Part shown: in pieces, positions 1 through 49,757 of the stretch
How positions within the stretch are numbered: position 1 is the first letter of the stretch
Layout of the letters: each line of letters opens with the position of its first letter
Virus record (IMG/VR): IMGVR_UViG_3300049846_001564
Location: 1 to 52,790 of that record
Reading direction: 5' to 3' (one strand)
Length of the DNA stretch: 52,790 nucleotides
DNA from: a virus
Lineage: Duplodnaviria; Caudoviricetes
Notes under the pieces: generated by a model
Seen by the model: the letters and a program-made list of their open reading frames with translations, nothing else
What the model was told of the DNA's origin: nothing
Database searches by the model: none
Translations under genes and position numbers: made by a program

Positions 1-567
1 ATCATAGACAATCTGTATAGTCTTATCATTATAATATTCAGTATACTTATCTCTATTTGATTTATTCGAGTGCATATTTCCTATCTCAATCGGTAACTTT
101 ACATTTTGTAAAATTCCGGGCTTACTAAAATCTTCCATTTTAATATAATTAGATTTGGGAATGTTAGCCCATTCACACATTTGTGCATATCTTTTAGTAT
201 GTAATCCTGAATTATCAAATACCAACGAATCACGATTATATTGAATATATTCAATAAAATATTCGAATCCTTTATCTAATATTTCATATTCTTTTCTAAA
301 ATCAATATCATTTTTATGGTGAAACTTTAAGAAATGATACCAAGAAACATACCAATCCCATGGATTTCGAATAGTGGTAAAGACTATCGATTTTTCCAAT
401 TGCAAATTGGGAGCTACTTGTTTAATATCATCTAAGTTTATATGTCCTTCTAAATAATCAATATGAATATTGTTTCGTTGAAGTACGTGTTCAATAGTAG
501 TACCTCCCGTTTTAGGTATATGAACGTACACATATTGTGTATTATCATGTTTAAATAAGTATGCCAT
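1..567 (-). CDS. sulfotransferase family 2 protein (3' end runs off the window; not in ORF track)
   Basis: Hand translation from ATG 567: MAYLFKHDNTQYVYVHIPKTGGTT (5'-PSB motif HIPKTGGT) and TIRNPWDWYVSWY (3'-PB motif). Confidence 0.85.
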   Translation of the reverse strand, partial: MAYLFKHDNTQYVYVHIPKTGGTTIEHVLQRNNIHIDYLEGHINLDDIKQVAPNLQLEKSIVFTTIRNPWDWYVSWYHFLKFHHKNDIDFRKEYEILDKGFEYFIEYIQYNRDSLVFDNSGLHTKRYAQMCEWANIPKSNYIKMEDFSKPGILQNVKLPIEIGNMHSNKSNRDKYTEYYNDKTIQIVYD

Positions 568-43293: not shown

Positions 43294-43368
43294 TGGAGGG
43301 CGGAGAGGGAATTGAACCCACATAAATTGTTTTGCAGACAACCACCTTACGCAATCGGACATCCGCCC
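43294..43368 (-). tRNA. tRNA-Cys(GCA)
   Basis: Cloverleaf, loop CTGCAAA, U73-CCA. Confidence 0.9.
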
Positions 43369-43389: not shown

Positions 43390-43753
43390 TGGTGGAGGAG
43401 GAGGGATTCGAACCCTCGTTTCCGATACCATTTTAAAGATTTTCTACAAGTTTAGTTATATTTTTCTAAATACACAAACTATCTATTTTTACAGAATAGA
43501 AACTGTTTACCACTCTTATTTATGATCACCTAATGGTCCGTGGTGATGGCTCTATTTTTAGGCTACTTCTAACACTTCAGGCTTGGCTTCCTGAGCAACA
43601 CGTGTAATAAAAGTTGGGATACTCATCATATCCTCAGAGTTATAAATGTTTCCACTTATAGTTACCTATTAATTTTTTAATCGCACACATTAATAGGCAA
43701 TGCGATACTTGCTTGTCAATAAACTAAATATCGGGGCTTTCCATGTCTCCCCC
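43390..43753 (-). ncRNA. ssrA: tmRNA
   Basis: GGGGGAG/CTCCTCC-ACCA with G3.U70; T arm GAGGG-TTCGAAT-CCCTC; tag ORF 43653-43558 GNIYNSEDMMSIPTFITRVAQEAKPEVLEVA*. Confidence 0.9.
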
Positions 43754-44016: not shown

Positions 44017-44219
44017 AATTAATTGAGCTTAACCGGAATTCTGCTTTATCGTAACATTTGACTATTCCCTGACCAGAGTTTCGAAGCCTTGCTCACCGGC
44101 TAACTCAATTTAGGTTTCTACCTCGGTAGTGCAAATGATTTTTTAAATCTCCTACCTTAAGCAATGTAGTTCCGAGTTTTCTAATACATTTAAGTACTCG
44201 TTACGTTCTCTTATTAATT
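44017..44219 (-). ncRNA. rnpB: minimal RNase P RNA (~203 nt)
   Basis: P1 ends AATTAAT..GAG/CTC..ATTAATT; P2 CGTAAC/GTTACG; AGAAAACTCGGAA pairs with GCAGAATTCCGGTTA (P4 with bulged U). Confidence 0.7.
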
Positions 44220-46365: not shown

Positions 46366-46449
46366 CGGTAAGTAGAAGTGTCGATCTCCCATCCTTGTAG
46401 ACGCATCCTAGTTTTCAAGACTAGTTCCCAGGCCGCTGGGGTACTTACC
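46366..46449 (-). tRNA. tRNA-Ser(UGA)
   Basis: CTAGT-CTTGAAA-ACTAG, long variable region, G73. Confidence 0.85.
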
Positions 46450-46457
46450 GTGTTATG

Positions 46458-46530
46458 TAGCTCTATAAGGATTCAAACCTTAACTCAATCATTCGTAGTG
46501 ATTAGTACTATTCAATTATACTATAGAGCC
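46458..46530 (-). tRNA. tRNA-Arg(ACG)
   Basis: AATCA-CTACGAA-TGATT. Confidence 0.9.
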
Positions 46531-46575
46531 ATGCTGAATATCAAGCAGTTACCCGAACCGCCCGAAGTTCATTAG

Positions 46576-46648
46576 TACCCCTACTAGGATTCAAACCTAG
46601 ATACTGGGTTTAGAAGACCCAGGTCCTATTCTATTAAACGATAGGGGC
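46576..46648 (-). tRNA. tRNA-Arg(UCU)
   Basis: TGGGT-CTTCTAA-ACCCA. Confidence 0.9.
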
Positions 46649-46654
46649 ATTTTG

Positions 46655-46727
46655 TGTTTCTACCAAGATTCAAACTCGGATAATCTCTTTAGGAAAGAGA
46701 TATGTTATTCAATTACATCATAGAAAC
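46655..46727 (-). tRNA. tRNA-Arg(CCU)
   Basis: TCTCT-TTCCTAA-AGAGA. Confidence 0.85.
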
Positions 46728-46939: not shown

Positions 46940-47012
46940 TGGGAAACAGTGGACTCGAACCACATTGCAGTTCGGTTTTACAGACCGTCTGACCAACCCC
47001 GGGCGATTTCCC
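46940..47012 (-). tRNA. tRNA-Tyr(GUA), atypical D arm and short variable region
   Basis: CGGT-CTGTAAA-ACCG; T arm GTGG-TTCGAGT-CCAC. Confidence 0.7.
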
Positions 47013-47271: not shown

Positions 47272-47349
47272 TACTCTCGGGGGGACTTGAACCCACATTT
47301 TCAACCAATTACCTTTATGCAAGATATAAGCTTGCGGGGATACGAGAGC
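47272..47349 (-). tRNA. rearranged tRNA-Ile(UAU): no D arm, D-loop-like variable region
   Basis: GCTCTCG-TATCCCC-GCAAG-CTTATAT-CTTGC-ATAAAGGTAATTGGTTGAAAAT-T arm-CGAGAGT-A. Confidence 0.7.
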
Positions 47350-47356
47350 AAATTCT

Positions 47357-47462
47357 GACATCACTAGGATTCAATTAACCGCCTTTAAGTTTTTATTGCT
47401 TTCGAGCAGAAACTCCATAATCCGTCGGAGCGTCCTTGAATCATTCGGACTAATAGATGTCA
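47357..47462 (-). ncRNA. unidentified structured RNA candidate between the two Ile tRNAs
   Basis: Nested TGACATC/GATGTCA and GATTCAA/TTGAATC stems plus internal hairpins. Confidence 0.45.
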
Positions 47463-47465
47463 TAG

Positions 47466-47543
47466 TCGGCAAGGAGGGAGTTGAACCCACATTTTCAACC
47501 AATTACCTTACTCCTGTGTATCAGACAGGGCGGATACTTGCCG
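47466..47543 (-). tRNA. rearranged tRNA-Ile(GAU): no D arm, D-loop-like variable region
   Basis: CGGCAAG-TATCCGC-CCTGT-CTGATAC-ACAGG-AGTAAGGTAATTGGTTGAAAAT-T arm-CTTGCCG-A. Confidence 0.7.
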
Positions 47544-47616
47544 TGGCTGCAAGGGTGGGGTTTCACCACGCATCCGGCTGACAGACCGGTACTCTATTTT
47601 GCTAAGCTACCTTGCG
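47544..47616 (-). tRNA. atypical tRNA-Asp(GUC)-like
   Basis: GCAAGG/CCTTGC acceptor, GCCA end, CCGG-TCTGTCAG-CCGG, non-consensus T loop TGAAACC. Confidence 0.5.
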
Positions 47617-47696: not shown

Positions 47697-47770
47697 TGGA
47701 CACGTTCGGACTTGAACCGAGAACTCTGGACTGCAAAACCAGTGTGATAGCCAAATTTCACCAACGGCCC
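47697..47770 (-). tRNA. tRNA-Ala(UGC)
   Basis: G3.U70, loop TTTGCAG, bulged acceptor stem. Confidence 0.8.
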
Positions 47771-48596: not shown

Positions 48597-48674
48597 TAGC
48601 GAGGGTGGGATTCGAACCCACATTATGAACTGCTTATGAGACAGACGCTGGTAACCATTCCAGTCCTCCTCGCG
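48597..48674 (-). tRNA. tRNA-Met(CAU), initiator-like acceptor
   Basis: C1/U72 mismatch, CGCGAGG acceptor, loop CTCATAA. Confidence 0.75.
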
Positions 48675-49435: not shown

Positions 49436-49757
49436 TTGCCCTAAACTCTCTTAGGCTTTTATACCTATTGTAGGCGCGGCATTCGGCGCCTCGTTATTCG
49501 GAATTTCTTCCTACAGTTTATACGAAGGGCGTCCTACCTTTGAACGATCTGGCCGAAGCCAGAGTAGGACTCGAACCTACATTTCCCCTTGATCTTGCCG
49601 GTAAACTCTCTTGAGATTTTACACCCATTGTAGGCGTAGCATGAACGCCTCGTTGTTCAGAATTTCTTCCTACAGTTTACCTCGACCGGCGTTTTTCTAT
49701 TAAACTACCTGGACGCTAAGCGTCCTGGGTGGGATTCGAACCCACATCTCCGGTTTC
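49436..49757 (-). repeat. two tandem ~160-nt units, each a permuted tRNA-like module plus a conserved ~85-nt structured tail
   Basis: Tails 49436-49520 and 49595-49680 share TAAACTGTAGGAAGAAATTC..AACGAGGCG..CGCCTACAAT..AAGAGAGTTTA. Confidence 0.8.

Follow-up and report, generated by a model that had tools for sequence, protein, structure and literature searches.

Phage-borne tRNA-Ile genes without a D hairpin and the predicted re-threaded core of their class

The DNA analyzed here (the window) is the whole of the Caudoviricetes record IMGVR_UViG_3300049846_001564 in IMG/VR (52,790 bases, guanine-cytosine content 32.8%, estimated completeness ~29%), and the elements under study are two transfer RNA (tRNA) genes on its minus strand, each 78 nucleotides (nt) long and with an isoleucine (Ile) anticodon: tRNA-Ile(GAU) at 47466..47543 and tRNA-Ile(UAU) at 47272..47349. 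Neither has a D hairpin. Both belong to a class, referred to here as the rewired-D-arm class, of which more than 200 distinct members were collected from viral and metagenome contigs using pattern scans and a covariance model. In this class a short helix, the pseudo-D stem, is predicted to form between nt 11-13 of the connector that follows the acceptor stem and the three nt preceding a conserved UAA, i.e. downstream of the anticodon arm; from its covariation, the helix appears to enclose the anticodon arm and to be the topological equivalent of the D stem with swapped strand connectivity. On comparative grounds the two genes are very probably real, functional tRNA-Ile genes, and we hold with good confidence that they are working tRNAs (GAU for AUU and AUC codons, UAU for AUA) of a widespread, virus-borne class with a re-threaded core, which would constitute a new structural tRNA variant, widespread in phages. 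The three-dimensional fold, processing, charging with isoleucine and use in translation are what we infer from these features.

Layout of the two genes in the window

Both gene sequences were read directly, and all coordinates in this section refer to the minus strand. In tRNA-Ile(GAU) the 5' strand of the acceptor stem (47537..47543) pairs with 47467-47473 at 7/7 positions, with the discriminator A at 47466. It is followed by a 7-nt connector, UAUCCGC (47530..47536), of which C11 and C12 (47533 and 47532) are assigned to the 5' strand of the pseudo-D stem, and by the anticodon arm (47513..47529), with 5/5 stem pairs, the anticodon at 47520-47522 and the 7-nt loop CUGAUAC. Downstream lie the linker AGUAA and then GG (47507 and 47506; together 47506..47512), this GG being assigned to the 3' strand of the pseudo-D stem by family homology. 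The D-loop-like linker UAAUUGGUUGAAAAU (47491..47505), which contains a further GG at 47500-47499 (the elbow GG), enters the T stem directly, and the T arm (47474..47490) has the loop UUCAACU and 4/5 stem pairs, with one U.U. In tRNA-Ile(UAU) the acceptor stem has 7/7 pairs including G1.U72 (3' strand at 47273-47279, discriminator A at 47272), the connector, from the sequence and alignment A1 (see below), is UAUCCCC (47336..47342), and the anticodon arm (47319..47335) has 5/5 stem pairs, the anticodon at 47326-47328 and the loop CUUAUAU. Linker, pseudo-D GG (47313-47312) and D-loop-like segment together span 47297..47318, with the elbow GG at 47306-47305, and the T arm (47280..47296) has 4/5 pairs, with one U.C. 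Overall, 16/17 stem pairs form in each copy (acceptor 7/7, anticodon stem 5/5, T stem 4/5). Both copies carry a 22-nt segment with the D-loop-like sequence UAAUUGG between the anticodon arm and the T arm, with GGU in this long segment, UUCAA in the T loop and a discriminator A.

An earlier note on this DNA, made without database searches, had described a 7-bp (base pair) acceptor, a 7-nt connector and a canonical anticodon arm in both genes within 47272..47543, together with an identical run leading into the T loop and stems that differ yet stay paired. This description was borne out: the two genes occupy exactly that span, with 7/7 acceptor and 5/5 anticodon-stem pairs; a 29-nt stretch into the T loop is the same in both genes (A1) and covers the last 19 nt of the long segment of the UAU copy; and the copies are identical at only 4/14 positions of the acceptor stem and 2/10 of the anticodon stem (6/24 together), with all of those pairs kept. 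Identity is 6/7 in the connector and 21/23 in the variable/D-loop-like part. The statement in the note that the D arm had been removed stands in part only. A D hairpin (10-13/22-25) is absent from the interval between positions 9 and 26, with only 7 nt from the acceptor to the anticodon stem, but the arm is not simply lost, as nt 11-13 of the connector pair downstream of the anticodon arm in the family.

The Rfam tRNA model (RF00005, gathering threshold 29 bits) reported the GAU copy at 31.8 bits, in an alignment in which 15 D-arm model positions were replaced by 4 nt and 19 nt were inserted in the variable region, and left the UAU copy unreported even at E <= 10. ARAGORN, run on the window, called neither gene. 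A covariance model, R1, was built on alignment A1 (12 sequences) and contained only the three classical helices; in the window it scored the GAU copy at 84.1 bits and the UAU copy at 77.1 bits (both are in its training set) against 23.3 bits for the best other match, which is more than chance. Because single-sequence folding was uninformative (see below), the structure was assigned by comparison. The long variable segment was inspected for a hairpin of its own by folding and in A1, and no conserved self-pairing was found. An alternative register, UAUC/GGUA, was considered and is not preferred, being unconserved and broken by UAAC in 3/10 of the subtype relatives found, although it may form in the window copies; the register of C11/C12 with GG holds in all subtype relatives and corresponds to the helix that covaries in the main family.

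Relatives, covarying helices and the elbow contact

Counts from the large scans are minima and not prevalences. An exact 27-mer search returned one relative only, on two IMG/VR contigs (L001 and L002; positions 230-400, minus strand, of L002). This sequence is related to the GAU copy, with which it shares the anticodon arm and core; the core is bracketed by a 9-nt direct repeat, and the copy is probably recombinant or decayed. A first motif gave 78 loci in IMG/VR, 24 of them with intact members (10 distinct) and 2 with the broken-acceptor copy, and R1 run over ten carrier records found more members, with unrelated T stems and with arginine (Arg) anticodons. A second motif put no constraint on the anticodon, on any stem, on the connector or on the base after the elbow GG; it gave at least 118 loci and, under a strict filter, at least 95 distinct members in IMG/VR, and at least 119 loci in metagenome contigs, at least 86 of them with members and at least 81 members distinct. 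A structural filter applied to all loci preceding the metagenome scan, together with the window, retained 137 distinct sequences in 133 loci. A scan for the window subtype, in which the D-loop-like segment is slightly longer than in the main family, gave at least 11 real members among at least 117 loci, including Arg(ACG) genes. In addition, one IMG/VR locus (L009, plus strand, ~151-200) combines a perfectly paired T arm with an acceptor-like helix of 7 bp; the ~30 nt that join them contain no recognizable anticodon arm, and the locus may be another tRNA-like oddity.

In cellular genome collections, the first motif gave no members among the 119 loci listed, and the second gave members in 13 among the 120 loci listed. 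The 8/13 with listed titles are all contigs of metagenome-assembled genomes (MAGs; the other five are L446, L463, L468, L478 and L482), and these members are likely prophage or mis-binned phage. Given these 13 loci, a virus-only status of the class is unproven. The earlier note had suggested a covariance-model search and named a lack of conserved homologues as the mark of decayed pseudogenes; the covariance model and motif scans returned the more than 200 distinct relatives mentioned above.

To examine the helices, 108 R1 matches (104 distinct) were aligned with R1 as alignment A2, the pseudo-D stem not being in the model. The paired fraction among the 104 distinct sequences was 97.2% in the acceptor, 96.8% in the pseudo-D stem, 81.3% in the anticodon stem and 98.1% in the T stem, the outer anticodon-stem pair being a conserved U.U in the family. 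The acceptor, anticodon and T stems all covary, each of the 7 acceptor pairs showing changes in both strands. In the pseudo-D stem, pair 11-43 is CG in 70 sequences, AU in 26, UA in 2 and GC in 1; pair 12-42 is CG in 61, UA in 29, GC in 12 and UG in 2; and pair 13-41 is CG in 86, GC in 12 and UA in 1. The covariation score of the whole structure was 0.849, as compared to 0.211 for shuffled (0/500 reaching the observed value) and at most 0.171 for slid controls. The pseudo-D stem is fully paired (3/3) in 124/137 members, and Ile and Arg members share its 12 distinct fully paired sequences; the independent metagenome set has 3/3 pairing in 80/81 and adds further helix types. Connector positions U8 (104/104), A9 (104/104), U10 (98/104) and C14 (103/104) are conserved in A2 independently of the search patterns, which left them free. 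All 104 A2 members have U33 and A37 in an anticodon loop of the canonical 7 nt.

Covariation of helix 11-13/41-43 indicates that the RNA folds in its encoded order. This bears on a possible reading in which the encoded order is that of a precursor, and splicing or permutation restores a canonical cloverleaf. The order does resemble a cloverleaf whose D-stem 5' strand and D loop have been relocated to the 3' side of the anticodon arm, but no single removal can restore it and a cut-and-paste of two pieces would be required; no intron-like element and no Rfam intron match was found, and lengths are tightly fixed (77 nt in 85/104 A2 members). A precursor is accordingly regarded as very improbable, and the intron or permuted-gene reading was set aside on the same two grounds, i.e. 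the lack of a match to any intron family in Rfam and the inability of a single excision to mend the order.

The family consensus after the pseudo-D helix is U-A-A-Y-U-G-G-N-N-A-C-A-U, followed by the T stem. Docking of the GG of this segment on the T loop, which the earlier note had proposed for the variable-region GG, is very likely, because the second G covaries with T-loop position 56. Over all loci preceding the metagenome scan, together with the window, the combination of GG with C occurs in 127 members and that of GA with U in another 10, with no mixed member. Broken down by scan of IMG/VR, GG+UUC gave at least 95 members in at least 118 loci; GA+UUU gave at least 10 members, all Arg (at least 116 loci with a match, 115 stretches listed); GG+UUU gave 0 members in 81 loci (complete scan); and GA+UUC gave 0 true members in 89 loci (complete scan), 3 matches being really GGA. 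A further Arg member, L239, was found by the model alone and was read by us as having the GA/UUU pairing. As a separate observation, three canonical Arg tRNAs of the window, at 46457-46530, 46575-46648 and 46654-46727 (minus strand; ACG, UCU and CCU), have the D loop UUGAAUA and the T loop UUUGAAU, in which an A19-U56 elbow replaces G19-C56, as in the ten rewired Arg tRNAs elsewhere.

A fold that would account for these features runs as follows. U8-A9-U10 would follow the 7-bp acceptor, and the next 2-3 nt would pair with nt located 4-5 nt downstream of the anticodon stem, forming a short pseudo-D helix that would stack on the anticodon arm as a D stem would. The strand leaving this helix would pass through the D-loop-like sequence U-A-A-Y-U-G-G-U...A..A-U straight into the T stem, with the GG docking on the T loop as G18/G19 dock on psi55/C56. 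The tertiary building blocks of the L-shape (U8, As like A14/A15, GG, an A like A21, a U like U48, and UUCRA) would be kept and only their connectivity changed. In the mapping to canonical positions, in which several of the bases were fixed by the search pattern, the As after U would correspond to A14/A15, the A before CAU to A21 and the U before the T stem to U48. With these blocks kept, the host ribonuclease P (RNase P), CCA-adding enzyme, isoleucyl-tRNA synthetase, elongation factor Tu (EF-Tu) and ribosome could still use the molecule.

Decoding signals, carriers and alternative readings

The anticodons of A2 are UAU (57), GAU (16), ACG (12), UCU (10), CAU (4), CCU (2), UCG (2) and UAC (1), and those of the metagenome set are UAU (40), UCU (12), GAU (7), CCU (6), CAU (6), ACG (6), UCG (3) and GCG (1), so that the family comprises Ile or Arg anticodons, a few CAU and one valine (Val). 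All of these belong to amino acids of class Ia synthetases, a restriction explicable by common descent since the anticodons are linked by single changes. Arg members have A after GG without exception (51/51), and Ile members have U there in 76/79; the figures for the metagenome set are 28/28 (A, Arg) and 47/47 (U, Ile). A also occupies the corresponding position in all four canonical Arg tRNAs of the window. A20 is the major D-loop identity element for the bacterial arginyl-tRNA synthetase. Ile-type members of A2 have A as discriminator throughout (78/78), Arg members have A, G or U, and CCA is encoded after the discriminator in 20/104. A canonical tRNA lies within 120 nt at 26/60 loci, often Arg(UCU) beside rewired Ile(UAU). 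A canonical tRNA-Arg(UCU) adjoins a rewired Ile(UAU) in L245-L250, L256, L292, L313 and L314, the two serving AGA and AUA, and in L253 a canonical tRNA-Arg(UCU) is directly beside a rewired CAU member.

The window carries on its minus strand a replication module (DNA polymerase, ribonucleotide reductase, DnaB-like helicase, thymidylate synthase and GroEL) and, at ~43.3-50.6 kilobases of the same strand, a transfer-messenger RNA (tmRNA), a dense tRNA array and a full-length GOLLD RNA. ARAGORN called 26 tRNAs and the tmRNA in the window, with no Ile tRNA among them. By our own reading the array covers 19 amino acids, with no Ile tRNA besides the GAU and UAU genes; the remaining uncalled tRNA-like matches were read by eye as Cys, Cys, Ser(UGA), Tyr, an Asp-like gene and a CAU tRNA. 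As these matches have other anticodons, the two genes are the sole GAU- and UAU-anticodon tRNAs of the array, in agreement with the earlier note. Ile codons in the 22 long open reading frames of the window (8829 codons) number 354 ATA, 292 ATT and 67 ATC, and the two genes are the only tRNAs seen there for these 713 codons, half of which are AUA.

Cultured carriers were sought with blastn, which is insensitive for 77-nt RNAs, so that the carriers found are a minimum. A search of the region against isolate phages matched an unannotated spot in 37 Streptomyces phage records, and in Mildred21 (NC_042008.1, locus L484) the matched spot has the same layout with a different yet fully paired acceptor stem. 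Other cultured or named carriers found by blastn were 77 Streptomyces phage records, the crAss-like cr130_1, bajarodcaudo virus 1 and the Microbacterium phages Zooman and A3Wally. Mildred21 has unannotated members at 73703-73779 and 94857-94933, a rewired Arg(UCG) at 91367-91442 (L484 5368-5443) annotated as tRNA-Phe(gaa), and a divergent rewired Arg(UCU) at 86379-86453 (L484 380-454) annotated as 'tRNA-OTHER'. In the same genome, an HNH endonuclease gene ends 2 nt before the rewired Arg(UCG), and the rewired Ile(GAU) at 73703 is preceded by a tRNA nucleotidyltransferase gene whose end lies 15 nt away. A rewired Ile member of EGole is annotated as tRNA-Leu, and Kehishuvirus 'tikkala', a crAss-like Bacteroides phage, has an unannotated member (76.9 bits) between tRNA-Trp and tRNA-Met. 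Canonical Ile tRNAs also occur in these complete relatives (GAU and UAU in Mildred21, UAU in 'tikkala'); the rewired Ile form is thus an addition in Mildred21 and 'tikkala', whereas it is the only Ile tRNA seen in the window. When ARAGORN was run on 62 members, 59 were uncalled, 2 were called Ile with aberrant lengths and 1 was overlapped by a Leu call; it also missed 13/13 members in the genome contigs.

Coexistence of canonical and rewired Ile tRNAs in complete genomes, and a shape far enough from the cloverleaf for ARAGORN to leave 59/62 uncalled, are what would be expected of RNAs that fold as described and do not decode, serving instead as regulators or as tRNA mimics, i.e. decoys or sponges of a tRNA-targeting toxin, nuclease or modification enzyme of the host. 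Against this stand the canonical anticodon loops with U33 and A37 in 104/104, the encoded CCA in 20/104, and the position of the two window genes as the only tRNAs for 713 Ile codons; in addition, the discriminator and the base after GG track isotype, and a decoy needs no matched synthetase identity elements. Such a non-decoding role is considered distinctly unlikely.

The earlier note had also raised evasion of host tRNA nucleases. In this form the genes would be functional tRNAs and the rewiring a counter-defense, by which they escape a host nuclease or toxin that reads the D arm or core of tRNA-Ile or tRNA-Arg. Members come from viral contigs and from MAG contigs whose origin is uncertain, and an eLife 2023 paper (PMC10264068) is reported to provide a precedent for phage tRNAs that evade tRNA-targeting defenses. 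However, the anticodon loops, which are the usual nuclease targets, are ordinary; no defense system directed against the D arm of either tRNA-Ile or tRNA-Arg was found in the literature searched; and the restriction to Ile, Arg, CAU and Val follows equally from one ancestor through single anticodon changes and synthetase tolerance. Counter-defense as the reason for the rewiring is therefore judged unlikely.

A more extended reading has four parts that would have to hold together: (a) that the class represents a second viable threading of the tRNA core, found in bacterial viruses only, with the D loop doubling as the variable loop; (b) that it had a single origin, probably from a tRNA-Ile, and spread to actinophages, crAss-like, marine T4-like and jumbo phages; (c) that switches among Ile, Arg, CAU and Val occurred via single anticodon changes and U20/A20 swaps, only class Ia synthetases tolerating the fold; and (d) that the missing D hairpin removes a handle for nucleases or toxins, so that phage genes rich in AUA and AGA stay translated. 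As a conjunction of all four, this is offered as a speculation of low probability.

Several results weigh against the assignment of the two window genes to a functional, re-threaded class. The T stem of each copy contains a non-pair (U.U in GAU, U.C in UAU). The pseudo-D stem of both window copies consists of two C-G pairs and a mismatch (G.A or C.A); in the GAU gene only C11-G38 and C12-G37 form, with G13 opposite A36, and among the 15 window-subtype relatives read, position 13 is paired only in L076 and L506 (U13-A). The subtype scan pattern fixed the paired bases, and the pseudo-D stem of the window subtype is therefore proposed by homology to the family helix. In A2 the D-loop-like GAAA, UAA, GG, ACAU and UUC.A were likewise forced by the search pattern. 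Single-sequence folding was unremarkable (z = -1.35 and -1.93), the minimum free energy (MFE) fold of the UAU copy is not a cloverleaf and that of the GAU copy shows the UAUC/GGUA register. The ten GA+U members, all Arg, may descend from few events, and given the canonical Ile tRNAs of the complete relatives the rewired form could be redundant. Finally, the acceptor 3' strand of the L001/L002 relative is non-complementary, which indicates that copies do decay. This last point, the weak z-scores, the failure of ARAGORN on both copies and that of Rfam on one are also the grounds on which the genes could be taken for decayed pseudogenes or for chance tRNA-like sequence. More than 200 distinct relatives with compensatory change in four helices and one tertiary pair, and the 16/17 stem pairs retained in both window copies despite differing stems, make decay or chance scarcely credible, and working tRNA-Ile genes remain the preferred reading.

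Further RNA features were noted in and around the tRNA array, all on the minus strand. The GOLLD RNA (RF02032, 50175-50600, 250 bits, model positions 1-416, full-length) sits immediately upstream of the array, and the tmRNA (43390-43753; called by ARAGORN, 76 bits in Rfam), with a predicted 31-residue tag peptide, lies at its downstream end. A CAU-anticodon tRNA-like gene at 48597-48672, missed by both ARAGORN and Rfam, has by our own reading a D hairpin, with 4 nt rather than 2 between the acceptor and D stems; it has the U.U outer anticodon-stem pair of the rewired family and a mismatched first acceptor pair. R1 gives it only 21.3 bits (over 48597-48649), and its identity may be Ile2 or Met. 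Five further tRNA-like genes missed by ARAGORN lie at 47547-47616, 47697-47770, 43297-43368, 46366-46450 and 46941-47012; by eye their anticodons are those of an Asp(GUC)-like gene, two Cys(GCA), a Ser(UGA) and a Tyr(GUA). The Asp(GUC)-like gene (31.2 bits) has an aberrant T loop and a shortened anticodon loop, the Ser(UGA) gene has an odd T loop and scores highest, below threshold, as tRNA-Sec (35.7 bits), and the Tyr(GUA) gene is without a long variable arm. Weak, sub-threshold Rfam matches in gaps of the array, to archaeal RNase P (44025-44210, 28.3 bits, threshold 84) and to YrlA, a Y RNA-like family (49497-49609, 30.8 bits, and 49683-49754, 22.3 bits; threshold 69), may mark further structured RNAs.

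Significance and comparison with known tRNAs

Few RNA architectures are as strongly conserved as the cloverleaf and the L-shape, and a missing D arm is regarded as peculiar to animal mitochondria, in which special factors co-evolved. If the rewired tRNAs are charged and used, bacterial RNase P, the CCA enzyme, class Ia synthetases, EF-Tu and ribosomes would accept a re-threaded core, the class would provide a natural scaffold for tRNA engineering, and phage tRNA inventories would be systematically incomplete. Members that are missed or mis-called (as Phe, Leu or 'OTHER') bias analyses of codon usage and tRNA complement, especially for AUA and AGA/AGG. As cultured carriers exist, the question is directly testable. 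In the main texts of the open papers searched, no account of D-armless or rewired tRNAs in phages or bacteria was found, and the papers on 'armless tRNA' that were found are all mitochondrial.

Animal mitochondrial D-armless tRNAs, e.g. mitochondrial tRNA-Ser(AGY), share with the rewired class a short connector in place of the D arm and the retention of the acceptor, anticodon and T arms. In the mitochondrial forms the variable region is short, the contact between D loop and T loop has been lost, and adapted mitochondrial factors are needed. The rewired class differs in its variable region of 22-24 nt, its covarying GG/T-loop pair and its pseudo-D stem, and would work with standard bacterial machinery. 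Set against the mitochondrial type, the window genes have a 7-nt connector with only 2 pseudo-D pairs, and nt 11-13 are paired in the family. Circularly permuted and split tRNA genes of some algae and archaea also have a non-canonical segment order, from which processing restores the cloverleaf; disorder of the segments is common to both, whereas the rewired class would fold in the order in which it is encoded, by means of the covarying helix.

Class II tRNAs and allo-tRNAs likewise have extra nt between the anticodon and T arms and occur as unusual shapes in phages and metagenomes; in these tRNAs (Mukai et al. 2016, PMC5389517) the D arm is retained and the long variable arm folds as a hairpin in itself. 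The extra segment of the rewired class has no hairpin of its own and is predicted to pair with the connector and to supply the D loop, and its 7/5 split between acceptor and T stem is normal. Other tRNA oddities are described in a further report (PMC9897764).

With canonical tRNA-Ile and tRNA-Arg (RF00005), the rewired class shares the 7-bp acceptor, the 5-bp anticodon stem with its 7-nt loop (U33 and A37), the 5-bp T stem with its UUCRA loop, the discriminator (A in Ile, A/G in Arg), the predicted pairing of GG with the T loop, the isotype-dependent U or A after GG and the location in tRNA arrays. It differs from them in being without a D hairpin, its D-stem-like helix being formed, as predicted from covariation, by the strands that flank the anticodon arm, and in the placement of its D-loop-like sequence, which lies between the pseudo-D helix and the T stem and there replaces the variable loop.

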